64,000 nt of DNA from an uncultured Candidatus Saccharibacteria bacterium (GCA_964505005.1 CAZDFQ010000001.1:50458-114457), one strand, 5' to 3'. Positions 27,579 through 62,911 are shown, counted from the stretch's first letter. Notes: generated by a model from the letters alone, not told the origin. Translations and numbers: made by a program.

Positions 27579-27581
27579 AAT

Positions 27582-27680: not shown

Positions 27681-27685
27681 CTTTT

Positions 27686-27762: not shown

Positions 27763-27767
27763 AAAAG

Positions 27768-28013: not shown

Positions 28014-28205
28014 ATTCGACCCTCTCCTTTCCGCCGAAGGCGGATCAGCCTCTGGCTGAAAAAGGCAGTTACTCTACCAGTTGAGCTACGGGGGATATTT
28101 ACTATCGACGAGCGCCCTGGTCCGCTAAAACTTGTTTTGCAAAGGGAGCTGCTGCTCTGCCTCCGCCAACCGGCGGATGAGCTACGGGGGGTTGTCTGCA
28201 ATCAA
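28013..28205 (-). pseudogene. two degenerate tRNA 5' fragments, each interrupted by the CCGCC..GGCGG hairpin element (one in anticodon loop, one in D-loop)
   Basis: CCCCCGTAGCTCAACTGGTAGAGTAACTGCCTTTTT[CAGCCAGAGGCTGATCCGCCTTCGGCGG]AAAGGAGAGGGTCGAAT and CCCCCGTAGCTCA[TCCGCCGGTTGGCGGA]GGCAGAGCAGCAGCTCCCTTTG. Confidence 0.4.
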
Positions 28206-38016: not shown

Positions 38017-38106
38017 CGATTGAGTGCCACGTCTGCCCGTCATAGCTTTACGCGAAGACGGGAGCTAAGAACGCTATGAAAACATCTTATATAATATTAT
38101 CATATG

Positions 38107-38237
38107 CCAGGTAGTGAAAATTCGACTGTTATGCTATAGCATAACACCTGAAATAAATTTGCCATTATTTGGCTCTAATTGTAAGAAATATAAGACCGAC
38201 ATCTTTAATAAATTATAGTCGAATTTCTACTACCTAG
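38107..38237. mobile_element. 131-bp MITE-like element with imperfect 18-bp terminal inverted repeats, ending 4 nt before the nuclease start codon
   Basis: CCAGGTAGTGAAAATTCG...GTTATGCTATAGCATAACAC...CGAATTTCTACTACCTAG; second copy at 53553..53686; first 47 bp identical. Confidence 0.6.
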
Positions 38238-38241
38238 TAAT

Positions 38242-38853
38242 ATGCCAAGCCGCGCTGGAAAGTATATTTTGCTTCTAACTGTTCTAATTTCGACGCTGTT
38301 TCTTTTTCGTTCTCAGGAATCGGCTCCGCAAATAGTAAAATTCCCTGCCCCGAACCACTCAATTCAGCCGGTGGTTTCTCAATCAGCGACTTCCAGCGGT
38401 CAAAACACAAATTTAAAAACAAGTAGAACCCTCGCCTCGGTAATCCGCGTTATTGACGGCGACACAATTGTTGCCAATATTGGCGGTAAATTGACGCGAG
38501 TGCGTTTGATCGGCATTGATTCGCCAGAGGTCGTTGACCCGCGAAAGTCGGTTCAGTGTTTCGGCGAAGAAGCCAGAAATGAAGCTGAGATGCTGCTCGC
38601 CGGCAAAAATATATTTCTCGAAAAAGACCCAAGCCAGGGCGATTACGACAAATATGGCCGGTTGTTGGCCTATGTTTTCACTGCGGATGGCGACAATTTC
38701 AACGAATTGATGATTGAGAACGGCTACGCTTATGAATACACCTATCGCCTGCCCTATAAATATCAGAGCGATTTCAAAGCCAGCCAACGAGAAGCGGAAC
38801 GTCTCCAAAAAGGACTTTGGAATCCGGAAGTGTGCCCGGCAAAAACAAAATAA
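38242..38853 (+). CDS. secreted/membrane-anchored thermonuclease (staphylococcal nuclease, SNase-like)
   Basis: 203 aa; N-terminal TM/signal; VIRVIDGDTIV...RVRLIGIDSPE...YGRLLAYVF SNc motifs. Confidence 0.75.
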   Translation: MPSRAGKYILLLTVLISTLFLFRSQESAPQIVKFPAPNHSIQPVVSQSATSSGQNTNLKTSRTLASVIRVIDGDTIVANIGGKLTRVRLIGIDSPEVVDPRKSVQCFGEEARNEAEMLLAGKNIFLEKDPSQGDYDKYGRLLAYVFTADGDNFNELMIENGYAYEYTYRLPYKYQSDFKASQREAERLQKGLWNPEVCPAKTK

Positions 38854-38879
38854 TAAAGTTTTCGGAATACTTCAAGAAA

Positions 38880-39044
38880 AAAGTTTAGCAATAATTAAAA
38901 TTAAAAGAACTGCTGTAATCATCAACACATATAATCTCCAAAACCATGACCACCACAATCCTAATATAGTAATCTTAGGATTTTTATCCATCAACTCTTT
39001 CACGGTCGGATTAAACTTTTGCCAAAAATTTTTGTCGTCCATTT
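38880..39044 (-). CDS. possible small membrane protein (~54 aa, below ORF-track cutoff)
   Basis: MDDKNFWQKFNPTVKELMDKNPKITILGLWWSWFWRLYVLMITAVLLILIIAKL read by eye; hydrophobic C-terminal helix; low confidence. Confidence 0.25.
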
Positions 39045-39175
39045 TTGTCGAAAGTCACTCAACGACCTTTGTAGCCCTCGCTTACCCGTTTACTAACATT
39101 ATATCACAATTGTGATATAGTAATAGTAACTTCACGACCCCTCTTTTATTGCTTTGCTCGGCTATCCAAAGAAGA

Positions 39176-39544
39176 TTACTGAATTTCGGCTTGAGCGCCC
39201 GCGGCTTCGAGTTTTTTCTTCAATTCTTCGGCTTCTTCTTTTTTGAGCCCTTCTTTGACCATCTTCGGCGCGCCTTCCACTAAATCTTTTGATTCTTTAA
39301 GCCCCAAGCCGGTGGCTTCGCGAACCACTTTAATCACATTGATTTTTTGTTCGCCAGTGGTTTTTAAAAGCACGTTAAAACTAGTTTTTTCTTCGGCGAC
39401 TTGCCCTGAGTCAGTCGAAGGGGCGGCGACCGGCGCGGCCGCAGAAATGCCGAATTTTTCTTCAAGAGCTTTGACGAGCTCGGCGAGTTCAACCGTAGTC
39501 AAGGATTCGATTTTTGAAATTAAGTCTTCAAATTTATGTTCCAT
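39176..39544 (-). CDS. rplL: 50S ribosomal protein L7/L12
   Basis: 122 aa; ...[22 protein letters not shown]...[24 protein letters not shown]. Confidence 0.9.
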
Positions 39545-39718
39545 AAATTTACAATCTCTAATTTCTAAATCCTAATTTCTAAATAATCTCAAATGTCCAA
39601 AATCCGAAGTTCAAAACCGTTTTTGAAATTTGAAATTAGAATTTTGAATTTATTTAGGATTTAGATATTAGGATTTAGGATTTCACATTATGACGACCTT
39701 TTTGCCCTTCGATTGAAC
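39545..39718. repeat. composite palindromic intergenic repeat (family 1)
   Basis: tctctaatttctaaatcctaatttctaaataatctcaaatgtccaaaatccgaagttcaaaaccgtttttgaaatttgaaattagaattttgaatttatttaggatttagatattaggatttagg. Confidence 0.7.
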
Positions 39719-40255
39719 TCAGGACAATCCTGAGCTTGTCGAACGGGTTGCTTTCTCATTCAACACATAAAGCAATGATCTTATCGGAGCGGCCAGAATG
39801 CCCAGCAATTGTGCGAGAATAATTTCCCGTGGCGGCAGCTGGCCGATGAAAATTATTTTCTCGCGTTCGATGAAGCCATTGTGCTCAATATCATAAGCGC
39901 CGAGAATTTTTTTGAGAACTTCCTGGCGAGCGCTTTTGGAATCTCCGCCGAGAGCGTTAAAAAAATTAAAGACCGGCGCGCTCGCTTTTTCTATAGCGCC
40001 CTCGGAAAAAATGGTGCCGAGCTGCTGGCCAAGGGTTTTAACATCAACTTCTATCCCCCGTTCTTTAAGAAGGAGTCCGAGGAGGCGCTTTTTGATGACG
40101 AAATATTTCGCGGGCACTTCTTTCAGCTGCTGGCGGAATTTTCTTGTGTCGGCCGTGCCAATTCCCGAAAAATCCGTAAAAATCAAAACCTGGCTTTTAT
40201 CTAAAAGCTTCTTGCCTTCGTTAAGTTCTTTTTGTTTCTGGGCTTTGGTCTTCAT
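39719..40255 (-). CDS. rplJ: 50S ribosomal protein L10
   Basis: 178 aa; position upstream of rplL and L10-like sequence (…VLIFTDFSGI…). Confidence 0.8.
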   Translation of the reverse strand: MKTKAQKQKELNEGKKLLDKSQVLIFTDFSGIGTADTRKFRQQLKEVPAKYFVIKKRLLGLLLKERGIEVDVKTLGQQLGTIFSEGAIEKASAPVFNFFNALGGDSKSARQEVLKKILGAYDIEHNGFIEREKIIFIGQLPPREIILAQLLGILAAPIRSLLYVLNEKATRSTSSGLS

Positions 40256-40556
40256 ACTTTTGTCATAATGCGAATCTACGAATTAATTATGCGAATGCCA
40301 CGAAAATTTTTCGCATCATTAGTATCATGCTTAACAAAAAACCTGCCTCCAAAGCAGGTACATCGGCTGATTATTTTTCAGCTTTCAATCCTCGGCGGGG
40401 CTTATATATTACGATTGGCCCGCTGTCTTTGGAGTTAGAAAAAATAATAGCAAACACCAAAAATCTGTCAACTCTACATATAACTTTACTTCCTGCCGCC
40501 GCCAAAGTGTTATGCTATGGCATAACACCTATGTGCTGATAAGTTTTAGGCATTGG

Positions 40557-42830
40557 TTACTTTTCCAATTTTAGCGATACTATTTTTGAAGTGCCGTCGT
40601 CATTGAGAGTGACGCCGTATAAGACATCAGCCACTTCCATCACCTCGCGGTTATGGGTAACGATAATGAACTGCGTTTTTTGGGAAAATTCTTTAAGGAT
40701 TTTTCCGAAGCGCTGCGAATTCCGCGAATCAAGCGCGGCGTCTATCTCGTCAAGGACCAGAAACGGCGGCGGGCTGACTGAAATCAAGGCAAAAAGCGCG
40801 GCAATGCCGACCAAGCTTTTTTCTCCGCCGGAAAGCGTCTCCAAAGAGCTGATTCTTTTGCGAGGCAAGCTCAAACTTATTTCAATGCCTTCTTCGATTT
40901 CTTTTTCTTCTTCATTACTATTGACTTTGTCTTGAGTAACTTCCCGTACCACTTCCTCCCCATTTTTGTTTTCTTGTCTCTTGCCTCTTGCCTGCCCGCC
41001 AAAGCCCTCGCCTTGCCGAAGCCGTCGGCGAAGCGCAGGTTGGCGCAGGCGGGTCTCTTGTCGCCCGATTTTCAGCCTAGCGTTGCCGCCGTCAAACATC
41101 AGCCGGAAAAATTTATTAAACTCCTCATTGATTTCGCCGAGCGCTTCCCTGAATTCATCTTTAATTTTTTTCTTCAATTCTTCAATCAATACCTCTAAAT
41201 CATTTTTGGCTTTCCCAAGGTCTTCAAATTGTTGTTTCAGAAAATGAAAACGTTCTTCGGTTTCTCTCGATTCTTTAAGAATGACTTCATCAATCTCACC
41301 AATGGCGGCTAAATCGCCTCTCAGCTTGAAAATCCGTTTTTCCAACGACTCAGCTGGAACGTCCCCGGCGGCTATTGTCGGCAGATTCCTGAATTCTTCA
41401 ATTGAGCGATTGGCTTGTTCAATCTGGCGTTCGAGCTCGGCCACCCGCAGCCTTAGCCGTTCTTTCTCAAATAAACGTTCCTGATTCCGATTCTCCCATT
41501 TTTCAATTTTCTCTTTGACCACATTGATTCGGGCCGCGGCATTTTTGAACAAGCCGTAGAATTCATCCCGATGTTTAGCGAGCTCTTCTTCTTTCGTCTG
41601 AAGGTCGGAAATGTTCTTAGCGAATTCCTGCAATTGAACATTTAATTCTTTGAGCCGAGTCTCAACGGCCGAGGAAGATTTATTGGTCTCTTTATCGGCG
41701 GTGAAAGGGACGACTGAAGAAACGAAATTCCTGATTTCTTCGATGGTTTCGCGCACGGCCGAACGTAAAGAATCAATCTCTCCGTCAGCGGTTTTCTCCA
41801 ACCTGTCTTTTATCTTCTCTAAAAAGCCGAGGGGTTTTGCCGCCGAGATAACGAATTCTTTGTCCTCTTTTTCGCCGATTCTACCAAGTTCGAGTTCGGC
41901 TTCCAAGCGCCCCAATTCTTTCTGAAGTCGGCTCCGTTTCTCAAAAAGCGAATTTAATTCTTTTTTGATTCCCTCCAGTTCTTTTCGTTCATGAGGCTGG
42001 CTGGCTTCGATTTTCTGGAGATTTTCTTCGGCGGCTTTTTTCTCTTCGTTCAGAATTTTCAATTCGCCGGCATGGCTTTCGATTTCTTTTTCAATTTCGG
42101 AAATTATTTTTTGAAGAACCTGCCACTGGTTTCCGAAAAACTGATTCTCCAGTTCGCGGAGTTCTTTTTCCAGGATTTCCCGTTTTTCCCAGCGGCCGGT
42201 CTGGCGCTTTAGCGAACGGAGGTGCGGCAGAATTTCTTTTAGTAAAGCATCGACTTTCTCAAAATTAATCTGGGTATTCTTCAATTGGCGCTCGCTGGAA
42301 ATTTTTTTAAGCTGATACTCCCGAAGACCGAGCATCTCTTCCAGCATTTCCCGTCTCTCTGGCGGCGAAACCCGGACGAAAACATCGCTGTTGCCCTGGG
42401 TGACAACCACCAGTCCTTTGGTTCCCAGCCGGGCTTTAGCGAAGAAATCAATCAGATTTTTCAGACGAATCTCTGCTTTATTCAGAAAAAACTTATTCGT
42501 ACCGTCGCGATTAACCTGACGCGAAACCGAAATTTCAGAGAACTCGAGGGGGAAAAAATTATTTTCATTCTCAAAATGAAGCACGGCCTGGGCCTGGCCC
42601 AGCCGCGGCTTTTTCGGCGTTCCGGCGAAAATTAAATCTTCTGATTTGGCGCTCCGAAGATTCCGGGCCTCCCGTTCGCCCAGCAACCAGCGGACCGCGT
42701 CGATGATATTTGACTTTCCGGAGCCATTAGGGCCGACAATGGCTGTAATGCCGGTCGGCAATTCAATGACTGTTTTCTGGGCAAAAGATTTAAATCCGTT
42801 GAGCTCGAGACGTTTGAGAAGATGAGGCAT
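40557..42830 (-). CDS. smc: chromosome segregation ATPase SMC (short, 757 aa) with a GC-rich in-frame insertion near the C-terminal head
   Basis: N-terminal LELNGFKSF...IVGPNGSGKSNIIDAVRWLLGE; C-terminal LSGGEKSLVGIAALFAL...LVLDEIDAALD; ~60% GC segment 40930-41110 encodes RLRQPALRRRLRQGEGFGGQARGKRQE... Confidence 0.8.
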   Translation of the reverse strand: MPHLLKRLELNGFKSFAQKTVIELPTGITAIVGPNGSGKSNIIDAVRWLLGEREARNLRSAKSEDLIFAGTPKKPRLGQAQAVLHFENENNFFPLEFSEISVSRQVNRDGTNKFFLNKAEIRLKNLIDFFAKARLGTKGLVVVTQGNSDVFVRVSPPERREMLEEMLGLREYQLKKISSERQLKNTQINFEKVDALLKEILPHLRSLKRQTGRWEKREILEKELRELENQFFGNQWQVLQKIISEIEKEIESHAGELKILNEEKKAAEENLQKIEASQPHERKELEGIKKELNSLFEKRSRLQKELGRLEAELELGRIGEKEDKEFVISAAKPLGFLEKIKDRLEKTADGEIDSLRSAVRETIEEIRNFVSSVVPFTADKETNKSSSAVETRLKELNVQLQEFAKNISDLQTKEEELAKHRDEFYGLFKNAAARINVVKEKIEKWENRNQERLFEKERLRLRVAELERQIEQANRSIEEFRNLPTIAAGDVPAESLEKRIFKLRGDLAAIGEIDEVILKESRETEERFHFLKQQFEDLGKAKNDLEVLIEELKKKIKDEFREALGEINEEFNKFFRLMFDGGNARLKIGRQETRLRQPALRRRLRQGEGFGGQARGKRQENKNGEEVVREVTQDKVNSNEEEKEIEEGIEISLSLPRKRISSLETLSGGEKSLVGIAALFALISVSPPPFLVLDEIDAALDSRNSQRFGKILKEFSQKTQFIIVTHNREVMEVADVLYGVTLNDDGTSKIVSLKLEK

Positions 42831-42975
42831 AATCGTAAATTTCTAAATCCGAATTTCTAAACAAATCCCAAAAATCCCAATTACCCAATAACCAATTAAC
42901 CTAATATCTAATTTGGGCATTTCCCTCGTTGGTCATTGATTAGGTCAATTAGGAATTAGGAATTAGTCATTTAAT
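42831..42975. repeat. composite palindromic intergenic repeat (family 1)
   Basis: aatcgtaaatttctaaatccgaatttctaaacaaatcccaaaaatcccaattacccaataaccaattaacc ... ggtcattgattaggtcaattaggaattaggaattagtc. Confidence 0.65.
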
Positions 42976-43677
42976 TTACTTATACTTCTCCAGCGCCTTC
43001 TTGGCAGCCGCCAGTTCCGCTTCCTGCTTGGAAGAACCCAGTCCTTCGGCAGTCAACTCCTCCTCGAAATAGACGCCGATTCGAAAGGTACGCTGATGAG
43101 CCGGCCCACTTTCTTCTAAAACCCGGTAGTTCGGCGTTATTTTAAGTTTCTCCTGGATTAATTCCTGGAGTTCACTCTTTGAATCTTTGTAACTTTTGGT
43201 TTCCAGAATTTCGGGAAGATGCGGCAGAATAAGCCGGCTGATAAAACCAACCGCGGCTTCATAGCCGGCGTCGAGATAAATCGCTCCGATGAGCGCCTCA
43301 ATAGCATTAGCCAGGATTACTTCTCTCGCTTTGGAAGTGTCGGCGCGTTCGCCTTTGGACATAAAAATATAGTCGTCCAAATGGAAGCTGGCGGCAATCC
43401 GGCCCAGCATCTGGTAATTTACCAGCGCGGCCCGAAACATCGTCAGCTGCCCCTCGGCCTCTTGAGGAAATTGTTGGAAGAGTTTTTCGCTGACTGCCAA
43501 TTCCAAAACAGCGTCGCCCAAATATTCCAGCCGTTCATTGTTGGGAAACGGCCAGTCGCTTCTTTCATTCAGATACGAACGATGAGTCAACGCTTCTCTC
43601 AGGAAATCTTTATTTTTAAAATTGAAACCGATAACGGCTTCGAGTTCTTCAAGGAGATGAGATTGATTATTATTCAT
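42976..43677 (-). CDS. rnc: ribonuclease III
   Basis: 233 aa; ERLEYLGDAVLELAVS RNase III signature plus C-terminal dsRBD. Confidence 0.9.
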   Translation of the reverse strand: MNNNQSHLLEELEAVIGFNFKNKDFLREALTHRSYLNERSDWPFPNNERLEYLGDAVLELAVSEKLFQQFPQEAEGQLTMFRAALVNYQMLGRIAASFHLDDYIFMSKGERADTSKAREVILANAIEALIGAIYLDAGYEAAVGFISRLILPHLPEILETKSYKDSKSELQELIQEKLKITPNYRVLEESGPAHQRTFRIGVYFEEELTAEGLGSSKQEAELAAAKKALEKYK

Positions 43678-43898
43678 TTCAATTCTAAAGATCTTAAAAC
43701 ATATTCGTATAATTCGTATGCCATTCGTAGATTAGGATTATATCTCAAGCAACTCGGCATAATGCGAATAATACCTGCCCGCCAATTGCCTTCTAAGATG
43801 ACTGGGATAATAATTTGGACATTTCCGACCGTTTTGAAATCACTACTAAAATTTGATTGACAGGCTTTGGCAGGCGGGCGAATTCTTATGCGAATTAT
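43678..43898. repeat. intergenic repeat (family 2, ATTCGTA/CGAATA units) with GCAGGCGGGCG hairpin
   Basis: catattcgtataattcgtatgccattcgtagattaggatt...cataatgcgaataatacctgcccgcc...ggcaggcgggcgaattcttatgcgaattattt. Confidence 0.55.
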
Positions 43899-44342
43899 TT
43901 AACTCTCTTTAGCGTTATCTTCCTCTTTATGGATTTCGCGGTAGACCGTTCCCAGAACGCCGTTTATAAATTTGACTGAATTCGGCGCGCCGTAATTTTT
44001 GGCTATTTCCACGGCTTCATTGATGGCTACCTTGGGCGGCACCTCGCTGGGGTCAGCGTATAAAAGCTCATAGAGGCCCAGTCGCAAAACGTTTCTATCA
44101 ATCATCGCAATCTTCGGGATTGGCCACTCCGGCGCGGCTTTCTCAATGATTTTGTCGATTTCCGGCAGATGCTCGGCGAGCCCCTTCAAAATCTTCCAGG
44201 CGAATTCCGGTTCGTCAATGCCCGGCGCGAACTCCTCGAGATTCCGCTCCAAAATAGTGGTTAAATCTTTCTTCCGGTCGTAGAAGTCCCATTCATAGAG
44301 TGCCTGGAGAATCACGCTTCTTATAAGATGTCGGGTGGCCAT
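43899..44342 (-). CDS. nusB: transcription antitermination factor NusB
   Basis: 147 aa; [20 protein letters not shown]... NusB fold signature. Confidence 0.85.
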
Positions 44343-44423
44343 CGTTTTAAGTTTGTAAGTTATAAGTTTATAAGTTCTAAAGGGAATTAACTTATCGACT
44401 TAAAAACTTATGAACTTCTCAAC

Positions 44424-44573
44424 TTACTTGCCGCATTGCGGACAAAGCCGATGCGGCATTTTAGGGCCGCCGCAGTTTTTGCAAGCCAAAAGACGCCTCT
44501 TCTTCAAAGCTAAATGCGACCGGCGCCGGCCGACTTTACCTTTGGTGTGATGTTTTACTGGTACGCCACCCAT
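44424..44573 (-). CDS. rpmF: 50S ribosomal protein L32 (zinc-ribbon type), 49 aa, missed by ORF track (below 60 aa)
   Basis: Minus-strand ATG at 44573: MGGVPVKHHTKGKVGRRRSHLALKKRRLLACKNCGGPKMPHRLCPQCGK; matches L32 RRSH...CxNCG...HR.C..CG. Confidence 0.8.
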   Translation of the reverse strand: MGGVPVKHHTKGKVGRRRSHLALKKRRLLACKNCGGPKMPHRLCPQCGK

Positions 44574-44654
44574 TATTCCGAGAATCTCTAAATTCTAAGT
44601 TCTAATCTCTAAAATTTTGAATTTCGATATTTGAGATTGTTTAGAGATTAGAGT
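44574..44654. repeat. composite palindromic intergenic repeat (family 1)
   Basis: aatctctaaattctaagttctaatctctaaaattttgaatttcgatatttgagattgtttagagattagagtttaaagattagagatt. Confidence 0.65.
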
Positions 44655-45461: not shown

Positions 45462-47296
45462 TCGACGGTCACGCTTTTTGCCAAATTGCGCGGTTTATCG
45501 ACATCGCGTCCCAATCTCACAGCCAGATGATAAGCGAAAAGGTGAAGCGGCATGACCGAAAGAAGCGGCGTCAGCATTTCCAAAGTTTTCGGAATGTAAA
45601 TTATATCGTCGGCCAATTCGGCAACTTTTTTGTCGCCGGCTGTCGCAATGGCGATTATTTTCCCATGGCGGGCTTTTACTTCTTGGGCATTGGAAAAATT
45701 TTTCTCATACAGGCTGTCGCTCGGCATAATAAAAAAGGAGGGAAAGTCTTTATCGATAAGGGCAATCGGGCCATGTTTCATTTCGCCGGCGCCGTAGCCC
45801 TCGGCGTGAATGTAAGAAACCTCTTTAAGTTTCAAGGCGCCTTCCAGAGCAATGGGATAATTGTATTTTCTGCCCAAAAAGAAAAAATCTCGCGCTTCAG
45901 AATATTTATCCGCCAATTTTTTTATTTTTGCGTTTTCTTTTAGAACTTGCCGCATCTTCTCTGGCAATTCTTGAAGTTCCCTGACAATCCGTTTGCCCAT
46001 TGTCAGAGACATTCCCCGTTGTCTTCCCAAAAAAAGCGTCAAAAGAGCCAGAACAGCCAGCTGGGAAGCGAAGGCCTTGGTGGAGGCAACGGCGATTTCC
46101 GGACCGGCATGATTATACACGCCGGCCTCGGTGAGGCGGCTGATGCTTGAACCCACGGTGTTCACGATGCCCAAAGTAAGGATGCCTTTTCGCTTCGCTT
46201 CCTCGAGTGCCGCCAACGTATCCGCCGTTTCTCCGGACTGGCTCACTGCCAGAAGAGCGGTGGCCGGCAGAAACGCTGCTTCGCGATAGCGCAGTTCAGA
46301 AGCCGAATGCACTTCAACAGGAAGATGAGCATAGGCCTCAAGCATATATTCGCCCACCAGCGCCGCGTAATAAGCAGTTCCGCATCCCGTTATGACGAGA
46401 TTTTTAATGTTCCGCAGCTCTTTTTCCGAATTTTCCAAGCCGCCAAGTTTGGCCAGTCCGTCTTTCGGTATCAGTCGGCCGCGGAGCGCGTTTTCGACTG
46501 CTTCCGGTTCTTCGAATATTTCTTTGAGCATAAAATGCGGGAAACCCTGTTTTGAAATGCGGGCAACATCCCATTCAATGGTCTGCGCTGTTCTCTTTAC
46601 TTCTTTCAGACCGGCGGAGAAAATCCGGCAGCTGTTCCTCTCTATTACTGCGCACTCGCCATCATTCAGGTAAACCACCTCTCGCGTGTACGGAACAATG
46701 GCTGAAGCATCGGAGGCGACGAAATATTCACCTTTACCTAAGCCTAAAATGAGCGGACTGGACTCGCGCACGGCCACAATTTTTTCTTCCGAGGAACTAA
46801 GAATAACGAGAGCATACGAACCCTTGAGAAGATGCCTTGCTTGGAATACTGCTTCCGCAAGCGTCGTTGACGGCTTCCGTTTCATTATTTCTTCAAGCAA
46901 ATGCGGTACTACCTCGGTATCCGTTTCGGAACTGAACTTGTGCCCCAATTTTTTAAGTCGCAAACGTAATTCTTTGTAGTTCTCGACAATGCCGTTATGC
47001 GCCACGAAAATGTTCTTCCGGCAATCGGAATGCGGATGGGCGTTCCGGTCGGACGGCTCGCCGTGGGTTGCCCAGCGAGTGTGGAAAATACCGATGCCAT
47101 AGTCTTTTTCGAGCGGCAATTTCGGCTCCAGGGCAGAGATTCTTCCTTTCGATTTTCTCGAAAAAATCTTTCCTTTGCCGTTCCACAAGGCCGCCCCGGC
47201 GCTGTCATAGCCGCGATATTCCAGCCGTTTCAACCCCTCAAGGAGTTCAGCGAGCGGTTTTTTATTTTCGCCGATGTAACCAAAAATGCCGCACAT
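45458..47296 (-). CDS. glmS: glutamine--fructose-6-phosphate aminotransferase
   Basis: 612 aa; MCGIFGYIG Ntn-amidotransferase start, two SIS domains, C-terminal ...KPRNLAKSVTVE. Confidence 0.9.
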   Translation of the reverse strand: MCGIFGYIGENKKPLAELLEGLKRLEYRGYDSAGAALWNGKGKIFSRKSKGRISALEPKLPLEKDYGIGIFHTRWATHGEPSDRNAHPHSDCRKNIFVAHNGIVENYKELRLRLKKLGHKFSSETDTEVVPHLLEEIMKRKPSTTLAEAVFQARHLLKGSYALVILSSSEEKIVAVRESSPLILGLGKGEYFVASDASAIVPYTREVVYLNDGECAVIERNSCRIFSAGLKEVKRTAQTIEWDVARISKQGFPHFMLKEIFEEPEAVENALRGRLIPKDGLAKLGGLENSEKELRNIKNLVITGCGTAYYAALVGEYMLEAYAHLPVEVHSASELRYREAAFLPATALLAVSQSGETADTLAALEEAKRKGILTLGIVNTVGSSISRLTEAGVYNHAGPEIAVASTKAFASQLAVLALLTLFLGRQRGMSLTMGKRIVRELQELPEKMRQVLKENAKIKKLADKYSEARDFFFLGRKYNYPIALEGALKLKEVSYIHAEGYGAGEMKHGPIALIDKDFPSFFIMPSDSLYEKNFSNAQEVKARHGKIIAIATAGDKKVAELADDIIYIPKTLEMLTPLLSVMPLHLFAYHLAVRLGRDVDKPRNLAKSVTVE

Positions 47297-47465
47297 ACTT
47301 TAAAAATCCAAATTTCAAAATCCAAATGACAAATTAATAACTAAAATTCAAAAAGTTTTTGACTTTTGGGCTTTGGATTTGATTTGAAATTTGGGCTTTG
47401 AAATTCGCCATTTAGGCTGTTTTGTTTGATGCCAAAAGACGAATAATAGATTTATAAGATGGGCT
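47297..47465. repeat. composite palindromic intergenic repeat (family 1, CCAAAT/ATTTGG variant)
   Basis: aaaaatccaaatttcaaaatccaaatgacaaatt...tttgggctttggatttgatttgaaatttgggctttgaaattcgcc. Confidence 0.65.
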
Positions 47466-48503
47466 TTAAAGCAACGACAAAATAACTTTAGCGAGTTTCC
47501 TGTGGCTGTGACGGATGAATTTCCCAGAATCAAGGAGGTCGGTTAAAATATACTTTGGCTTTTTTTGTTTCAAATTAACCCCGCACCTTTTGGTGAACGA
47601 ATCTCGTGTTTTTTTTATGTGGAGCGGTCTTCGCGTGAGCTTCCTGCTAAAAGGTGCGGGGTTAAGACCGGCAGGGTCCACGAATTCGGATTTTTCTTTT
47701 TGATAGCGTTGAAGGATGCGCTGGGGCGGTTTTTTATTATTAAAAATAACATAATCTATAACTCCTTTTCCTAAATAGGTTTCGAGGGCCTGGATAAAAT
47801 CGGCTGCCCGGAAGTTGTGAGTTTCGCCGAATTTCGTCATTAAATTTGCGATATAAACTTTTTTGGCTTTTGATTTTCGGATTTCCTCGGGCAGGCCTTT
47901 AACCAGCAAATTGGGAATTAAGCTCGTGTAAAGGTCGCCGGGGCCAAGGATAATCAGGTCGACGTTTTTCAGAATTTTCTTTATCCTCGGGTTCATCCTG
48001 GCGGCTGGCTCGAGCCAAATTTTTTTAATGGCTGACCTCGCCGAACTTTTCGGAATGTCGATATTCGTTTCTCCTTTCAGGGTCTTGCCGTCGGCAAGCT
48101 TGGCATAAAGCCGGACATTGTCCAAAGTTACCGGCACCACCTCGCCTCGAATGTTCAAAACCTGCGAGGCCTCGCGAACCGCTGAAGCAAAATCACCGGT
48201 CATTTTCTCCAGGGCGCTCAAAAATAAATTACCTAAACTGTGACCATGCAAACTGCCTTGGCTGAAACGGTAATTAAAAAGCTCGCGGAGTGTTTCGCTT
48301 GATTCGGAAAGAGCCACCAGCACCCGCCTTATGTCTCCGGGCGGCAACACGCCGTACTGGTCCCGTAATATGCCGCTGGAACCGCCGTCATCAGCCATGG
48401 AAACGACGGCAGTCAAATTAACCGGATAGGGCTTAAGCGCGGTTAAAACTGCGAAATTGCCAGTGCCGCCGCCGATGGTAACAACATTTTTTCTTCTCAT
48501 CAT
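47466..48503 (-). CDS. CofD/YvcK (UPF0052) family protein with C-terminal extension encoded by a hairpin-forming insert
   Basis: 345 aa; MMRRKNVVTIGGGTGNFAVLTALK...MADDGGSSG; C-terminal ~60 aa encoded by 47560-47700 containing CCCCGCACCTTTT...AAAAGGTGCGGGG 13-bp inverted repeat. Confidence 0.7.
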   Translation of the reverse strand: MMRRKNVVTIGGGTGNFAVLTALKPYPVNLTAVVSMADDGGSSGILRDQYGVLPPGDIRRVLVALSESSETLRELFNYRFSQGSLHGHSLGNLFLSALEKMTGDFASAVREASQVLNIRGEVVPVTLDNVRLYAKLADGKTLKGETNIDIPKSSARSAIKKIWLEPAARMNPRIKKILKNVDLIILGPGDLYTSLIPNLLVKGLPEEIRKSKAKKVYIANLMTKFGETHNFRAADFIQALETYLGKGVIDYVIFNNKKPPQRILQRYQKEKSEFVDPAGLNPAPFSRKLTRRPLHIKKTRDSFTKRCGVNLKQKKPKYILTDLLDSGKFIRHSHRKLAKVILSLL

Positions 48504-48598
48504 TTATATCATACCTAAATTCGTCATCATTGCCATATTAAAAGCGCCGCTCTAAAAACAACGCACCCCGCCTGACGCAAATCAGCCAAACGGGGTGG

Positions 48599-48850
48599 TT
48601 AGGTTGAACTTTTCGCGGACTTTACATAGTGGTGATGGCCGCCGGAAAAGCACGAGGAACATATCTCTTTCTCTGTCAGGGGGTCTTTGACGATGTTCCT
48701 CCTTTTTTGCCCGCAGATTGCACATTCGCGGAGTGGATTTATTCTGTCCCTCCACTCCCGCAGATAGTGCTTCCTGCAGAGTCCATCGGCGAAGACCTCG
48801 TCGCCGCATCTGCGGCAGTGCCGGCCGCTATTCCTACTATTCTTAGGCAT
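48599..48850 (-). CDS. small zinc-ribbon protein (CxxCGDEV family), GC-rich islet
   Basis: SD AAAAAAGGAGGAAGCG then MPKNSRNSGRHCRRCGDEVFADGLCRKHYLREW...CAICGQKRRN...CSSCFSGGHHHY; the 120-aa ORF-track call (48599..48961) re-split at this internal SD-supported start. Confidence 0.4.
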   Translation of the reverse strand: MPKNSRNSGRHCRRCGDEVFADGLCRKHYLREWRDRINPLRECAICGQKRRNIVKDPLTEKEICSSCFSGGHHHYVKSAKSST

Positions 48851-49019
48851 CGCTTCCTCCTTTTTTGCCAGCGGCTTTGCATCGGCTCTCCCCGCACTTC
48901 TCGCAGAAGTGCTTCGTTCTACTCTTAGTTCTACAGATGAAGCGCGGTACCGCTTCTCCATCTTTTAATTGGATACGGAGGCGGCACTGGTCGCAAAAGA
49001 ACAGCCCGTTTATCTGCAT
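48843..49019 (-). CDS. small zinc-ribbon protein (58 aa), stop overlaps downstream start by 8 nt (ATGCCTAA)
   Basis: SD AAGGAGGCAGTTTGAT then MQINGLFFCDQCRLRIQLKDGEAVPRFICRTKSRTKHFCEKCGESRCKAAGKKGGSDA; read by eye. Confidence 0.35.
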   Translation of the reverse strand: MQINGLFFCDQCRLRIQLKDGEAVPRFICRTKSRTKHFCEKCGESRCKAAGKKGGSDA

Positions 49020-49260
49020 ATCAAACTGCCTCCTTCCCGGCTCTTAGCCGAGAGTATTGTCCTGGGTTTAATTGCCCTTTATGAAAAGCTGCAACTTCCC
49101 AGAAAGGATAATCAAAATTTTATCTTTAAATTTATAAAATCGGGATTTATATGCAAAGAGAGGTTGCGAAGCAACCGGCTGAAAACCCCGTGTTGGAAGA
49201 TAGGAGCGAAGCGACGTAAGAAACCCGAGGGTGTCTTAAGCGGGGGTCGGGGTTTTCAGG

Positions 49261-49549
49261 TGCCGCGGGGGTGAATCGAACACCCGACGCCATGCTCTTC
49301 CATAAGGACTATATCATCATCCGGTTTTCAAACGGATGCGAGGCGCTTCCTCCGACGTAACGTCGGCGTACTCCCAAAGGGATAGTCTCTACACCTGCCC
49401 CGGCTAATGTCGGGGATTGGCTCGGGATTGTCCGCCCCATCCGTAGATGCCGGCGGAGTTCCCCCGAATTCACCTCGTTTTCATCTAAGCATTACTGCTT
49501 AGCGGCCCGAAGATTCCAGGCATGCGCTCTACCACTGAGCTACCGCGGC
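49261..49549 (-). tRNA. tRNA (probably Phe, anticodon GAA after splicing) interrupted by a ~217-nt group I intron in the anticodon loop
   Basis: 5' exon GCCGCGGTAGCTCAGTGGTAGAGCGCATGCCT (49549-49518), 3' exon GAAGAGCATGGCGTCGGGTGTTCGATTCACCCCCGCGGCA (49300-49261); intron (49517-49301) ends in G, preceding exon ends in U, and contains GGTGTAGAGACTA and CCGAGCCAA, near-identical to the Azoarcus tRNA-Ile group I (IC3) intron core; exon junction and anticodon are inferred. Confidence 0.65.
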
Positions 49550-49736
49550 AGTACTCGTTAATGATAACAAATTAGATTGAGCTTTCAAATAGAAACCCTT
49601 AAAGCGTTCCGCAACAGATCTGTTGGTAGCAGGACGGCGGTCATTTATTAAGGTCATAGATAACTCCGTAGTGTTATGCTACAGCATAACACCCGCCAAT
49701 ACTCTCTTTTTGCTTTCTACCACGATGAATTCATAT

Positions 49737-50867
49737 TCACTTCTTCAGCTTCAAAATCATCCTTCTTTCTGCCGGCTTGATGGAATCAATGACAAATTGA
49801 TAAGTTCCGCCCGCAGTCAGCGCTTTTTTCATTTCCTCGCCGCCTCCGAACTCGGAGATATGAATCAATCCCTGCAGGCCTTTTTCGGTGTCAATGACCG
49901 CGCCGAAAGGATTGAGTTTATAGACCTTGCCGGAAATTTCCTGCCCCGGCTGATAATATTCTCCCGCTTTCTCCCACGGGTCTGGTTTCAAGGCTTTCAG
50001 CGAAAGGAAAACCCGGCTGTCGCGGATATCAATAATCTTCACCTTCACCGGTTCATCCAGTTTGACTACCTCTTTGGGATTTTCAATCAGGCGGTAATCA
50101 ATTTCCGAGATATGGACCAGGCCTTCGATTTGAGGATTGTCGACGAAACGGACGAAAACCCCGAAATCAGCTATTCCGGAAACCACGCCGTCCACCACCT
50201 GCCCGACTTGATAATTGGCGAGCAGTTCCTTGATGTTGGCCGCTACTATTTCCCGCTCGGAGATTATGAGTTTATTGGCCCGGGGATTAACGGTAATCAC
50301 TTTGACATTGAATTCTTCTCCGATAAACTTTCTGAGCGCTTCGAGATTCTTCTGCTGGTCGCCTTCGGTGTTTTTCGGATAATGCTCCTGGGAAAGCTGA
50401 GAGGCCGGCAGAAAGGCCTTCAATCCAAAAAGGTCGGCAACCAAGCCGCCGGAATTGGCGCCGGTTATTTTCACCTTGATGATTTCGCCGCTTTCCTGAA
50501 GTTCCTGGAGCTGCTGCCAGATGCGCTGTTTGCCGGTTTCCGACAATGAAAGTTCGACATAACCGCCTTCGCCTTCAAGGTTTTCTATTCTCGCCATCAC
50601 TTTATCGCCGGGATTAAGTTTTTTGATTATATCTCTGGCGTTAAGCAGCTCGGCACCGTAAACAATACCGGTGCCGAACCGGCCCAGGTCAAAGAAAATC
50701 TGGCGCTGCTCTTTTCGCAGAAGCTCGACTTCAACCACTTCGCCCTCGCGGAGCCGGGCTCCGGAAAACTCATTTTTAAGGGCTTGAAGAAGTGCTGAAT
50801 TCGATTTGTTGTTTTTCTCGTTGACTGGCATGCGAAATATCATAGAAATTCGTTCGTAAAAAATCAA
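49737..50867 (-). CDS. rpsA: 30S ribosomal protein S1 (four S1 domains)
   Basis: 376 aa (likely start at internal MPVNEKNN, ~50831); repeated S1-domain pattern G.V.G.V..I..FG.FV. Confidence 0.8.
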   Translation of the reverse strand: MIFYERISMIFRMPVNEKNNKSNSALLQALKNEFSGARLREGEVVEVELLRKEQRQIFFDLGRFGTGIVYGAELLNARDIIKKLNPGDKVMARIENLEGEGGYVELSLSETGKQRIWQQLQELQESGEIIKVKITGANSGGLVADLFGLKAFLPASQLSQEHYPKNTEGDQQKNLEALRKFIGEEFNVKVITVNPRANKLIISEREIVAANIKELLANYQVGQVVDGVVSGIADFGVFVRFVDNPQIEGLVHISEIDYRLIENPKEVVKLDEPVKVKIIDIRDSRVFLSLKALKPDPWEKAGEYYQPGQEISGKVYKLNPFGAVIDTEKGLQGLIHISEFGGGEEMKKALTAGGTYQFVIDSIKPAERRMILKLKK

Positions 50868-51016
50868 GGGTGGAAATAAACAGCGTAAAATTGCCTTGTC
50901 GCAAAAATTAGAGTATAGTTATTCTGAAAACAGAATGCCAAACCACGAATGGATGCGAATACCGCGAATAAAAACTCAATTCGGATGCATTCGTAGTCAT
51001 TCGTAGCATTTGTAGC

Positions 51017-51931
51017 ATGAAAATCATCGGCGAAAAAATCAGATGGATTGACATTCAGCAGCCCGCGGAGGGAGACATCAACTGGCTGCAGAAAAATTTT
51101 AGTTTCCATCCGCTGATTATTAAGGAATTGAAGAAATCGTCGGCTCGTTCGAAAGTTGATGCATTCGACGACTATCTCTATCTCATTTATCATCTTCCGG
51201 TTTATGACTCTTTGGAAAAAGTTTCGCGGCGTTCGGAAATCGATTTTTTGCTTACCAAGAACGATGTCATTACGGTGCATTACGACGACATCGAAGTATT
51301 TTCCGATTTCCAAAAATCGCTGATGAATGAAGCCGCCGGCCGGCAGCTGAAAGAAAAAATCCCGGGAAACACCCTCAAACTGACTTACGAACTTCTCAGC
51401 CGGCTTATCAATTTTCATCAGCGGCAGCTGAACCACGTCGAGGAAGAAGTCGAAGACATCGGCAATGAGCTTTTCAAAAACAAGGAAAAAGAACTCCTGA
51501 AAAAAATTTCTTACGCCAAGCGGAACATTTCCGAATACCAACTGATTGTCAAGCCTCAGCAGCATCTTTTCAGTTCTTTTCTCGAAAGCGGGTCGAATTT
51601 CTGGGGCAAAGAAAGCCGGGTTTATTTAGCCGACTTGGCCGGCGAATACCTGAAGCTTCTCCAGCGGCTCGAGTCGTCCCGCGAGGCCGTCACCGATTTT
51701 GAAACCACCAACAACCAGTTGATGGATATGAAAACCAATGAAATTATGAAGACCTTTACGATTCTGGCGTTTTCCACTTTTCCGTTGGTGCTGCTGGCCG
51801 GAATTTTCTCGATGAAGACCGCTGGCGTGCCTCTGACAAACAACCCGGCTGGTTTCTGGATTGTGGTCGGCATTATGGCAGCCGTTCTTGTTCTGATGTT
51901 CATTTATTTCAAGCGCAAACGTTGGCTCTGA
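51017..51931 (+). CDS. CorA-like divalent-cation transporter with non-canonical pore motif (SMK instead of GMN)
   Basis: 304 aa; CorA architecture: long cytoplasmic domain, two C-terminal TM helices, AGIFSMKTAG where GMN is expected, terminal KRKRW. Confidence 0.55.
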   Translation: MKIIGEKIRWIDIQQPAEGDINWLQKNFSFHPLIIKELKKSSARSKVDAFDDYLYLIYHLPVYDSLEKVSRRSEIDFLLTKNDVITVHYDDIEVFSDFQKSLMNEAAGRQLKEKIPGNTLKLTYELLSRLINFHQRQLNHVEEEVEDIGNELFKNKEKELLKKISYAKRNISEYQLIVKPQQHLFSSFLESGSNFWGKESRVYLADLAGEYLKLLQRLESSREAVTDFETTNNQLMDMKTNEIMKTFTILAFSTFPLVLLAGIFSMKTAGVPLTNNPAGFWIVVGIMAAVLVLMFIYFKRKRWL

Positions 51932-52020
51932 TTTTAAATTTCTAAATTCTAATCTCTAATTTCTAATTTCTAAATAATCTCAAAATCCAAATTTCAAATT
52001 CTGAAACGAACGCCTGAATA
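51932..52020. repeat. intergenic repeat (family 1 units, single arm)
   Basis: ttttaaatttctaaattctaatctctaatttctaatttctaaataatctcaaaatccaaatttcaaattctg. Confidence 0.6.
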
Positions 52021-52103
52021 AATCCTGTTGACGCCATAAAAAAATTATGGCATTGTTTGGAGTAGATATTCGTAAGCAAAATAAGGGATAAATTCGGATA
52101 CAG

Positions 52104-52462
52104 GAAGGAGGTGAAGGGAGAAGCTGTTTGACAAGGGCGACCGTTTCGGTTGGGCGATGTAGCTGTCAGGGCGGGGTGACCGTTGGGGTTGGGCGAGCTG
52201 TACGGATGGGGTGACCATTCTCCGGGGGCGAGCTGTTTCATCTGGGTGGCCGTAATTGAGGGGCGCAGTAACCAACTCGCTAAGGAGGTGATGAGAGCTG
52301 TGTTTATGGGGTGACCGTTTATCCGGGGCGAGCTGTATGAGGTGGGTGGCCGTCTTGTGAGGGCGAGCTGTTCTTTAAGGGTGACCGTGGCCCATGGGTG
52401 AGCTGTTGTAGCAGGGTGACCGTAGAAAATGGGCGTAGTAACTACGCCGAAGGAGGAATGAA
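52104..52462. repeat. array of alternating short direct repeats R1 GGGCGAGCTGT and R2 GGGTGACCGT, each followed by a variable 7-mer (35-bp period, ~8 units), upstream of the IS110-like ORF
   Basis: e.g. gggcgagctgt-acggatg-gggtgaccat-tctccgg-gggcgagctgt-ttcatct-gggtggccgt-aattgag...; units 1, 5 and the last are split by SD-containing inserts (AAGGAGGTGA...). Confidence 0.75.
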
Positions 52463-53248
52463 ATGGAGACGAGGAAGACGGGGCTGAACGAGTTGGAAGA
52501 GCGGATCGTCGTGGCTGCGTACAAGCTGGTGGAAGCCCAGCGGCAGCGCGGCCGCATCGGCCGGATAATCGGCAGAATCAAGCCGACAGCTGGCCGAAAC
52601 GGTTGGAAGCCCAAGCCGCCTGGGCCACTCCGGCATCTCCGCGTCCAGGCCTTCGCCGAAGTCGGCTTCAGCGAACCCGAATACGAGGCCTGGGAGCCGA
52701 AGATCGAGGAGTACCGACAGGAGCTCCAGGCGCTCGTGCGTGAGCATCCGGTTTGGACCACTTGGGCTGTCAAGGTGCCGGGTCTTGGGAAGACGATGAC
52801 CGGCCTGGTAATGGCCGCCATCGGCGATGTGACGCGGGTGCACACCGCGTCCGGGCTCTGGAAGTCGTTTGGCCTCCATGTGGACAACGAGACCAAAATG
52901 GCGGTCAAGCCCCAACCCGGCGTACCCGGTACGCTTGGCCATCCGTTCGCCAGGAAAATCCTGGGCGTGATGCGGTCAACCTACTTCCGCATCGGCGCCA
53001 AGGGCCAGGGCGGTTTCTATTACGACCGCTACCTGGAGAAGCGCCGGGAGTACGACCAAGCGCATCCGGACTGGCCCGAAGGCCGGCGCCTGGGCGCGGC
53101 AATCCGCAAGTTCGAGAAACTTCTCCTCTCCCACATCTGGGAGGTGTGGAGAAGGTCCAAGGGCCTACCGGTGTTGCCGCCTTATGCCGTGGCCCAACCC
53201 TGGAGCCTGCACAAAAAAATCAGGCCCGAGGAAGCGATGGCGCAGTAA
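52463..53248 (+). CDS. IS110-family transposase C-terminal (Transposase_20-like, HhH/IGD) domain protein lacking the DEDD RuvC-like N-domain; Arg-rich N-terminus
   Basis: 261 aa; VKVPGLGKTMTGLVMAAIGDVTRVHTASGLWKSFGLHVDNETKMAVKPQPG fits IS110 C-domain (IPGIG..TA..L.AEIGD..RF.S...L..Y.GL.P....SG); N-term RQRGRIGRIIGRIKPTAGRNGWKPKPP; strong [18 protein letters not shown]; ~62% GC. Confidence 0.5.
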   Translation: METRKTGLNELEERIVVAAYKLVEAQRQRGRIGRIIGRIKPTAGRNGWKPKPPGPLRHLRVQAFAEVGFSEPEYEAWEPKIEEYRQELQALVREHPVWTTWAVKVPGLGKTMTGLVMAAIGDVTRVHTASGLWKSFGLHVDNETKMAVKPQPGVPGTLGHPFARKILGVMRSTYFRIGAKGQGGFYYDRYLEKRREYDQAHPDWPEGRRLGAAIRKFEKLLLSHIWEVWRRSKGLPVLPPYAVAQPWSLHKKIRPEEAMAQ

Positions 53249-53452
53249 GCCCGAAGGGTAAACTGTATGAATTGGGTGCCCGTACGTCTGGGGCGAGCTG
53301 TTTGCATTGGGTGACCGTTTTTGCGGGGCGAGCCGTACTACGCGGAGTGACCGTGGCCCGAGGGCGAGCTGTTTGACAAGGGCGACCGTGGTTGTTGGGC
53401 GAGCTGTGGGGGCTGGGTGACCGTTTCGAGAGGGCGCTGTTCAACAAAAGGA
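53249..53452. repeat. downstream array of the same R1/R2 + 7-mer units (~7 units)
   Basis: ggggcgagctgt-ttgcatt-gggtgaccgt-ttttgcg-gggcgagccgt-actacgc-ggagtgaccgt-ggcccga-gggcgagctgt-ttgacaa-gggcgaccgt-...; 7-mer ttgacaa also present in upstream array. Confidence 0.75.
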
Positions 53453-53454
53453 GG

Positions 53455-53495
53455 GCGGGCTTGCGCGAAACGCGCAAGCCCGCAACTATTTTTAT
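53455..53495 (+). terminator. rho-independent terminator closing the GC-rich islet
   Basis: GCGGGCTTGCGCG-aaa-CGCGCAAGCCCGC perfect 13-bp stem followed by aactATTTTTAT. Confidence 0.6.
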
Positions 53496-53552
53496 AATGA
53501 ACAAAGTCGAACTATTTATACCGCCTCGATTTTTTTATATAATGGAATTCGT

Positions 53553-53686
53553 ATGCCAGGTAGTGAAAATTCGACTGTTATGCTATAGCATAACACCTAA
53601 ATAAGTCGTCATTATCCAGGCTAATCATCGTAAATAAATATATAAATGTTGGAATTGATAAACTAAATCGAATTTCTACTACCTTG
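53553..53686. mobile_element. second copy of the 131-bp MITE-like element, ending 1 nt before the cysS start codon
   Basis: CCAGGTAGTGAAAATTCGACTGTTATGCTATAGCATAACACCT...CGAATTTCTACTACCTTG; related palindrome GTGTTATGCTA(T/C)(A/G)GCATAACAC also at ~40517 and ~49668. Confidence 0.6.
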
Positions 53687-53687
53687 T

Positions 53688-62666: not shown

Positions 62667-62911
62667 TCTTCAATTATTATTGGCCATCGAAGACGGACAG
62701 ATCGAATTTTCACTACCCGGTAAAAGTTTTCGATTTCTGAAAAATCATTGAAGCAGAATTCCTGGCTGTTTACTGCTGTTTACTATTACTATATAACAAT
62801 TGTTATATAGTAATAGTAGAGCGCAGAACCGAAACCACTGCATTTACTATTATTAACGATTTCTCGGAGGGCGCGGGGATATAGAGGGACGGAATACGGA
62901 TATATTAAAAA

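Follow-up and report, generated by a model that had tools for sequence, protein, structure and literature searches.

Start-codon-associated miniature inverted-repeat elements of Patescibacteria and a coding relative with a GIY-YIG nuclease

Copies in the window and in other genomes

The window, a 64,000-nucleotide stretch of the genome of an uncultured Candidatus Saccharibacteria bacterium (GCA_964505005.1, CAZDFQ010000001.1:50458-114457), carries three copies (A, B and C) of a short element bounded by terminal inverted repeats (TIRs). They lie at the 5' ends of a thermonuclease (SNase) gene, of cysS and of a DUF4258-like gene, respectively. A preliminary description, made from the sequence alone, had reported two 131-bp units at the first two genes, with identical left ends, common right ends and gaps of 4 and 1 nt to the ATG, and these are present at the positions given there. 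The three copies and their parts are as follows.

38107-38237, plus strand: copy A, a MITE (miniature inverted-repeat transposable element)
38107-38127: left TIR of copy A, CCAG GTAGTGAAAATTCG ACT
38128-38145: internal hairpin of copy A
38217-38237: right TIR of copy A, AGT CGAATTTCTACTAC CTAG
38103-38106, plus strand: left TATG flank of copy A
38241-38244: right TATG of copy A, 3 nt (TAA) past the TIR, its ATG being the start of the SNase gene (38242-38853)
38104-38139: upstream open reading frame of copy A (MPGSENSTVML*), opened by the upstream ATG
53556-53686, plus strand: MITE copy B, with arms at 53560-53573 and 53669-53682
53577-53594: internal hairpin of copy B
53552-53555 and 53687-53690: left and right TATG of copy B, a perfect target-site duplication, the right ATG being the start of cysS (53688-55133)
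53553-53588: upstream open reading frame of copy B (MPGSENSTVML*)
62589-62720, minus strand: MITE copy C, complete, with arms at 62716-62703 and 62606-62593 and outer pairs CCGG/CCGG
62724-62721 and 62588-62585: flanks of copy C, TTTA and TTAT, an imperfect duplication

Copies A and B have the same sequence from the TATG before the element through ...CATAACACCT (also written ...GCATAACACCT); their middles diverge, and the right ends CGAATTTCTACTACCT(A/T)G are again common to both, ending 4 nt (copy A, ATG 38242) and 1 nt (copy B, ATG 53688) before the host start codon. From TIR to TIR the window copies span 131-132 bp, and they hold no transposase open reading frame (ORF), just the 11-codon upstream ORF (uORF) of A and B. 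With ≤3 mismatches allowed, the window has six occurrences of the 18-nt arm, compared to 0.05 expected from shuffles. Since these six arms form three inverted pairs, a complete third copy is present: the left-TIR-like sequence previously noticed near 62690 is a real arm, but it is one end of the minus-strand copy C rather than an isolated fragment. The internal hairpin of copy C is unlike that of A and B. All three copies are non-autonomous DNA transposons of the MITE type.

At copy C, no stop codon interrupts the host ORF across the right TIR as far back as ATG 62624 and TTG 62666, both inside the element, and the weak DUF4258 match (E=0.1) of the ORF downstream of the copy starts exactly at the element boundary. 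Copy C may supply the start codon and ~14 N-terminal residues of this gene, the alternative start being ATG 62555.

A two-arm pattern scan was carried out over species-representative genomes and the IMG/VR viral collection, and genome fragments (the fetched loci) were examined. At least 117 loci in species-representative genomes match the pattern. The source titles of the listed loci are nearly all metagenome-assembled genomes (MAGs) of Patescibacteria (the candidate phyla radiation, CPR) or of an unclassified bacterium; they include Parcubacteria/Paceibacterota, Yanofsky-, Portnoy-, Nealson-, Lipton- and Moranbacteria and 'Patescibacteria group', and some third-party annotation (TPA) bins are labelled Saccharibacteria or Gammaproteobacteria. 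In IMG/VR, one contig with the MITE was found and no long form of the element. The element is multicopy: the 64-kb window holds 3 copies, and one MAG has no fewer than 17 in its fetched loci. Arm to arm, family members measure 109-137 nt, and the core sequence differs between genomes.

The insertions are flanked by a 4-bp target-site duplication (TSD), the presence of which had been proposed as a check on the two original copies. Among 127 distinct copies, the left positions -8 to -5 equal the right positions +5 to +8 at 85-88% per position, compared to 11-27% just outside. The pair TATG/TATG accounts for 60 of the 127 copies. Other 4-mers without ATG are duplicated too (CTTG three times, AAAG, TAAG, TGAA, TCAT, CAAA and TTCA), which indicates a genuine 4-bp TSD, with the consensus YATR. 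A filled and an empty site could be compared: locus L088 reads ...TATG[element]TATG-ORF, and L115 has a single TATG before an ORF whose protein is 95% identical, although the empty site is not perfectly clean because the short intergenic spacer has also diverged. Proteins identical to the CysS and SNase of the window were found on contigs L219, L220 and L221 (Logan, SRR5161795 and SRR5161805), which begin 119, 122 and 36 nt upstream of the ATG; that assemblies of these two genes break inside the element is expected of a multicopy repeat. Taken together, a TIR/TSD transposon family is spread through the Patescibacteria.

Element ends and the start-codon target

The TIRs are imperfect and 21 bp long in A, B and C and across the 127 copies. 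The general layout comprises 4 outer pairing nucleotides, the conserved 14-mer GTAGTGAAAATTCG, 3 inner nucleotides, a variable core of ~90 nt, 3 nucleotides, the 14-mer CGAATTTCTACTAC and 4 nucleotides. Folding of the elements gives a long hairpin from either strand (-33 to -43 kcal/mol, z -4.5 to -7.1). The 4 nucleotides outside the 14-mer covary across the 127 copies: outer pair 2 is A-T in 85, C-G in 26 and G-C in 13, and within the window the outer pairs compensate between copy A (CCAGG/CCTAG) and copy C (CCGGG/CCCGG). Covarying arm variants include AAAACTCG/CGAGTTT, AAATTTG/CAAATTT and GCAGTG/CACTGC.

Pairing of the arms extends over 21 positions, of which two neighbouring ones in the centre are an A.C and a G.T. 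Read in the same sense, this central dinucleotide is GA in one arm and AG in the other, and it is never complementary in the 127 copies. The state GA...CT outnumbers AG...TC by 47 to 11 in the full-length elements described below, and by ~85:15 in the MITEs, relative to the host gene; both states are found with the same arm variants. In the orthologous loci L030 and L085, whose downstream proteins are 83% identical, the dinucleotide is swapped while the core is colinear. The flip was also seen for L033 compared to L104 and in the full-length set L139-L218, independently of the orientation of core or ORF. Relative to the arms, the cores of the minority class aligned with majority cores in the opposite orientation in 6 cases and in the same orientation in 2, with 7 ties, while the control comparison gave 61 same and 0 opposite. 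It follows that the orientation of core and ORF follows the host gene, and that the polarity of the mismatch can flip. Such flips could arise from two inversions by exchange within the inverted arms. Two further ideas on orientation were considered and given up. As a fixed orientation marker, the internal hairpin shows only a tendency (42 vs 19 for gene-right, 3 vs 7 for gene-left copies), and a link of arm polarity to the direction of replication is not supported: relative to the host gene, the GA arm comes first in A and B (plus strand) as well as in C (minus strand). For the enzymes of the IS200/IS605 and REP/RAYT systems, irregular hairpins mark strand or end identity, and the mismatch kept in the present TIRs recalls them.

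The preliminary description had placed the units just upstream of start codons. They do lie beside an ATG, but more precisely the element sits inside a (T)ATG and duplicates it. A host start lies ≤12 nt from the right arm in 82 of the 127 copies (plus 6 ambiguous ones); in 15 the start codon is on the other side and the other strand, and 24 have none. The right-hand TATG opens an ORF of ≥100 aa at 55 of 69 sites, compared to 20% of all TATG in the same DNA. In the window, ~29% of the non-disruptive TATG/CATA sites are start codons, so tolerance alone fails to explain the bias. The family therefore prefers the (T)ATG of start codons and duplicates that site. Since the preferred target is T+ATG, the TSD copies the ATG to both sides and the genomes largely lack Shine-Dalgarno (SD) sequences, the host ORF is left intact behind the element. 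SD-like motifs are rare, being found ahead of 5 of 73 host sites and of 5 of 45 window genes (long ORFs), and a T stands directly before the ATG in 24 of the 45.

The promoter-like sequences near A and B belong to the host, and the following features surround the two insertions.

38090-38095, plus strand: host TATAAT, outside the element and 8 nt ahead of copy A's left ATG
ending at 53543: promoter-like TTTATA-17-TATAAT of the host at copy B, outside the element
53455-53483: terminator of the gene upstream of copy B

The TATAAT at both copies belongs to host DNA beyond the TSD, with 8-9 nt between it and the upstream ATG, and the TTATATAAT found upstream of both is likewise host DNA outside the element. 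A promoter scan of the copy A region returned weaker promoter-like matches only. Three further possibilities were tried and given up. That host genes are generally leaderless is partly true, a -10 hexamer 6-7 nt before the upstream ATG being present at ~12 of 73 sites and in 6 of 45 window genes. Read-through translation from the upstream ATG of the MITEs is contradicted by an in-frame stop in 70 of 73 and by an ATG-to-ATG spacing that is flat modulo 3. A promoter belonging to the element itself is not apparent, as internal -10-like hexamers occur at no fixed position and no site reads outward.

A motif of the TTAGAAATTAGGATTT type is reiterated 40 nt upstream of the start codons of at least 10 window genes, for example at 12677, 17559, 18209, 19707, 22414, 42830 and 47296 (minus strand) and at 55292 and 56811 (plus strand). 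It may be a lineage-specific promoter or translation-initiation signal.

The coding relative and the enzyme that may mobilise it

In locus L065, from the above MAG with many copies, the same TIRs stand ~270 nt apart around an ORF of 86 aa, giving an element of ~310 bp. The 86-aa protein matches the Pfam family GIY-YIG (PF01541) with E=4.6e-16 and has a single GIY-YIG domain with no extra domain. A GIY-YIG ORF within the same TIRs is also present in L119 and L129, the former reading aaTATG|CCAGGTAGTAGAAATTCGACTgcgattATG...tTAGTCGAATTTTCACTACCTGG|TATG-host gene. The L065 protein has 724 relatives at E≤1e-10 with 70-78% identity, and the source names seen are all Patescibacteria or unclassified 'bacterium'. 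After clustering at 50% identity, the tight family comprises 11 representatives at E≤1e-30, with a further 3,681 small GIY-YIG relatives at E≤1e-10.

For 80 metagenome loci fetched by protein similarity alone, a choice that leaves the sample unbiased by the arms, the left arm was found in at least 67. Deduplication left 60 distinct two-arm elements of 284-363 bp (mode 313-319 bp), in which the sole ORF is a GIY-YIG nuclease of 84-91 aa. Identical 4-mers flank 40 of these 60, namely TATG in 29 and TGGA in 8; a few full-length elements sit inside an SD-like GGAG. Unrelated flanks surround some full-length elements that are 85-90% identical to one another. The same TIRs and TSD thus also bound a coding relative, and in the sampled loci the only coding members of the TIR family carry this single GIY-YIG nuclease. 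Together with the fixed-length 4-bp TSD, the small ORF-less multicopy form, the hundreds of copies found in other genomes and the filled and empty sites, this relative strongly supports the earlier suggestion of a MITE with TIRs at start codons.

The nuclease ATG lies ~9 nt past the left arm, and in 24 of 37 full-length elements it is accordingly reached in frame, without an intervening stop, from the duplicated upstream ATG. Gene callers accordingly give N-termini of the type MPGSENST..IMF.., encoded by ATG CCA GGT AGT GAA AAT TCG ACT, that is, by TSD and TIR. The inner stem is overlapped by the nuclease stop codon TAG, which in the modal layout is followed by the host ATG after 20 nt. The AlphaFold model of the nuclease has a pLDDT (predicted local distance difference test) of 92.7, and the solved folds nearest to this predicted structure are UPF0213 BH0048 and the structure-specific nuclease Slx1.

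In the loci of the pattern scan and in the window, no larger element with the same arms was found; what turned up was limited to solo arms in a decayed state, mini versions of ~60 nt and the L065 element of ~310 bp. The mini versions consist of the arms and a short loop and were seen in L020 (1864-1923), L044 (~4162-4230), L047 (~1168-1231), L062 (~4404-4463), L076 (~1777-1834) and L060 (7203-7265); the one in L060 stands directly after a GIY-YIG gene that has no left arm and overlaps the stop of that gene. A further arrangement, ...TTTCACTACCCGG TGGA CCGGG..., consists of a right end, TGGA and a truncated left end adjoining the nuclease gene. It was seen just upstream of the GIY-YIG gene in L179, L183, L189, L198, L200, L204, L209, L212 and L213, and suggests that insertions into a class of TGGA targets occurred in tandem or nested within one another.

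We consider it probable that the window copies are MITEs of a family with TIRs and a 4-bp TSD whose coding relative encodes a GIY-YIG nuclease, and that this nuclease drives mobility and start codons are captured. The role of the nuclease as mobiliser is suggested by the tight association of gene and TIR, by the finding that nothing larger carries these ends in the pattern-scan loci or the window, and by a fold shared with a cutter of junctions and stem-loops. In the mechanism we propose, the GIY-YIG protein would be the mobilising enzyme and, as its modelled Slx1/UPF0213-like fold suggests, may act as a structure-specific nuclease recognising the TIR stem or a junction, with the strictly kept tandem G.T/A.C mismatch serving to distinguish the two ends or strands. 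A 4-bp TSD of fixed length speaks for cleavage of the duplex target with a 4-nt stagger. Full-length elements, which would lack a promoter or ribosome-binding site (RBS) of their own, would be expressed from the captured host start as an MPGSENST..-GIY-YIG protein, and the host gene would be re-initiated at the duplicated ATG 20 nt past the nuclease stop. The window copies would either have lost the ORF or share the ends alone, and would depend on the nuclease in trans. For SNase, cysS and the DUF4258-like gene they would be tolerated passengers, adding an 11-codon uORF and a strong hairpin leader (-33 to -42 kcal/mol) between the host promoter and the host ATG. More tentatively, with our own opinion close to evenly divided, we suggest that the 86-aa protein is the transposase-equivalent of a minimal insertion sequence (IS) of ~315 bp, which lives in host start codons, borrows their promoter and ATG and regenerates the ATG, the 131-bp copies being its riders.

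Several observations weigh against this proposal. No prokaryotic transposase of the GIY-YIG type is known, and host functions would be required to join the strands. The cores of the MITEs share little homology with the nuclease ORF beyond the TIRs, so that 'derivative' may mean shared ends only. The 64-kb window contains no full-length partner; its two GIY-YIG ORFs (27282-27629 and 27768-28013, minus strand) belong to a different subfamily from the TIR-bounded nuclease and lack the arms. In 13 of 37 full-length elements the upstream ATG and the nuclease ORF are in different frames, and in L129 a stop codon follows that ATG in frame. Just about a quarter of host sites have a -10 hexamer at leaderless distance, and the TSD is imperfect in copies A and C. 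The examined sequences are genome fragments, which leaves room for a conventional transposase acting in trans.

That last arrangement, in which a true MITE family is mobilised in trans by a conventional transposase (such as a DDE enzyme making a 4-bp TSD) and the GIY-YIG gene is a selfish passenger or cargo, would account for the majority of copies having no ORF and for MITE cores that do not clearly derive from the nuclease ORF; TIRs with a fixed-length TSD are the classic signature of DDE transposition. We nevertheless regard it as unlikely, given that at least 67 of 80 nuclease genes sampled regardless of the arms lie inside TIRs, that arm pairs in the pattern-scan loci and the window enclose nothing above the ~310 bp of L065, and that arm variants co-occur with different copies of the nuclease gene. 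A second possibility is that the hairpin is no parasite but a domesticated cis-regulator, kept mainly for its function in the RNA leader, where it might be processed by RNase III, sense temperature, or serve the translation or stability of genes lacking SD sequences. Its location between promoter and start codon in the sense orientation, its strong RNA folds (z -4.5 to -6.6), the capacity of the flanking UAUG copies to pair (G.U/U-A/A-U/U.G) and lengthen the stem across the start codon, and orthologous insertions kept across species, as at cysS in several lineages, are consistent with such a role. However, the opposite strand folds equally well, the host genes are unrelated in function, and the non-Watson-Crick pair on the sense strand is A.C in 36 cases and G.T in 18, the reverse of what an RNA stem predicts. 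Rfam gave no match to the element at the gathering score in the window, nor at E≤10 for copy A, its matches in the window being limited to two tRNAs and one group I intron. Insertion rather than conservation is indicated by the TSDs and the empty site, and the RNA leader appears improbable.

The preliminary description had also suggested that the element may deliver a promoter, an RBS or an operator. The TTATATAAT just upstream of A and B and the recurrence of the palindrome in the window gave this idea some appeal, but the -10-like hexamers of both copies lie in host DNA upstream of the TSD, no promoter-like site reads outward, no SD-like sequence can be seen between the right TIR and the host ATG, and the palindrome is missing from copy C and from the copies of other genomes, whose cores vary. 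None of the three deliveries is supported, and the explanation is very improbable. Segmental duplication or chance similarity, for which nothing speaks beyond the first view of two copies, can practically be dismissed: the flanks are unrelated, a third copy is present, and the family is represented by 127 distinct copies in other genomes.

The family was compared with known systems. Classical bacterial MITEs such as Correia (Neisseria), ERIC and RUP are intergenic multicopy elements of 100-150 bp with TIRs and TSD. The present elements resemble them in size, TIRs, TSD, copy number, position near gene starts and co-transcription as a long hairpin, but differ in that the TSD is a 4-bp YATR rather than TA, the start codon is entered and duplicated, the TIR tandem mismatch is strictly kept, and the coding relative has a GIY-YIG nuclease instead of a DDE transposase. 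IS200/IS605 elements use an HUH/Y1 enzyme, make no TSD and have distinct left and right hairpins. With IS200/IS605-PATE and REP/RAYT (cited in PMC11893778) the present family shares very small size, imperfect strand-marking hairpins and a small nuclease associated with palindromic repeats, whereas here the only ORF is GIY-YIG, with no HUH/Y1, a TSD is present and each end is the inverted repeat of the other. GIY-YIG homing endonucleases (I-TevI, Seg) and Slx1/UPF0213 have the same catalytic fold, and a selfish-gene lifestyle is a further likeness. In contrast to homing endonucleases, the element nuclease has no DNA-binding extension, does not reside in an intron and is bounded by TIRs and TSD, and the element occupies dozens of unrelated host genes, where a homing endonuclease would have a single cognate allele that lacks the intron or the endonuclease gene.

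Among published systems, Ssn/NTS is the nearest analogue. Ssn proteins are single-domain GIY-YIG nucleases of ~94 aa that cut single-stranded DNA beside NTS/SRM hairpins (Chenal et al. 2025; PMC11893778). Those hairpins often flank the Ssn genes, a layout that the authors described as IS-like (PMC11893778). The comparison was made via the published description and a degenerate SRM pattern. Both systems have a single-domain GIY-YIG protein of ~90 aa (84-91 aa here, with a confident GIY-YIG model, against a defining ~90-100 aa), a gene bracketed by inverted-repeat DNA, many ORF-less repeats near genes and an IS-like layout, and Tyr6, Tyr17 and Glu63/64 are conserved at equivalent positions. The elements could on these grounds be the CPR version of Ssn/NTS, that is, a domesticated single-stranded DNA nuclease with cognate hairpin repeats that modulates DNA uptake or recombination, and no active transposon. 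Yet the published SRM pattern had no match in 209 kb of GIY-YIG loci and one unrelated match in the window; the two flanks are arms of one long-range 21-bp TIR instead of two local, self-contained hairpins; and a 4-bp TSD, insertion polymorphism and a start-codon target are seen here, unlike in the report of PMC11893778. The nearest solved folds are UPF0213 and Slx1, and the hosts are Patescibacteria. We judge this version to have a low probability, comparable to that of the RNA leader. No description of the family was found in the searchable literature, which omits most subscription journals, so that a prior description is possible; the minimal start-codon-targeting GIY-YIG element family appears to be new.

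Should mobilisation by the nuclease hold true, the family would represent a compact, abundant mobile element with an unconventional enzyme, GIY-YIG would become an added catalytic class of prokaryotic DNA transposons, and the ~315-bp form would be among the smallest autonomous mobile elements known. Duplication and capture of the start codon would explain how a parasite can occupy the initiation regions of essential genes in tiny CPR genomes without killing its host. These repeats fragment metagenome assemblies, mislead gene callers into spurious MPGSENST.. N-termini and shifted starts, and put uORFs and strong hairpins in front of genes, cysS among them. A nuclease of 86 aa with predicted recognition of a defined DNA stem could serve as a tool, like the Ssn enzymes.

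Solo palindromes and other features of the window

The 18-nt palindrome of the internal hairpin occurs four times in the window, against none expected, twice within A and B and twice alone. The solo occurrences are the following.

40509-40526: GTTATGCTATGGCATAAC, 31 nt downstream of the stop of the minus-strand SMC gene (40557-42830)
49673-49690: GTTATGCTACAGCATAAC, 47 nt downstream of the stop of the minus-strand S1-protein gene (49737-50867)

Recurrence of the palindrome by itself had been noticed before and stands, but both sites follow the stops of these genes and do not precede them as was then thought. They were considered as decayed copies of the element, an idea rejected as no arm remnants were found beside either site. 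In the loci of another MAG (LBYG01), the equivalent hairpin never occurs outside elements. The solo palindromes could be terminator-like or repetitive extragenic palindromic (REP)-like units that were captured by the MITE of this genome.

A perfect 38-nt palindrome, TACTATTACTATATAACAA|TTGTTATATAGTAATAGTA, is located at 62781-62818 between copy C and a PD-(D/E)XK gene, ~60 nt upstream of C. The two GIY-YIG ORFs of the window are interleaved with tandem tRNA-Lys-like genes or fragments (27282-28201, minus strand; direct repeats of 41 and 61 nt), and their coding sequences (MFVVY../MFYVY..) start at most ~10 nt from the tRNA-like 3' end. Two of these tRNA-Lys-like copies have a hairpin insert of ~30 nt after the T-run of the anticodon loop. 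At 49250-49552 (minus strand), a tRNA-like gene for which ARAGORN makes no tRNA call is split by a group I intron (RF00028, 63.6 bits, 49295-49527).

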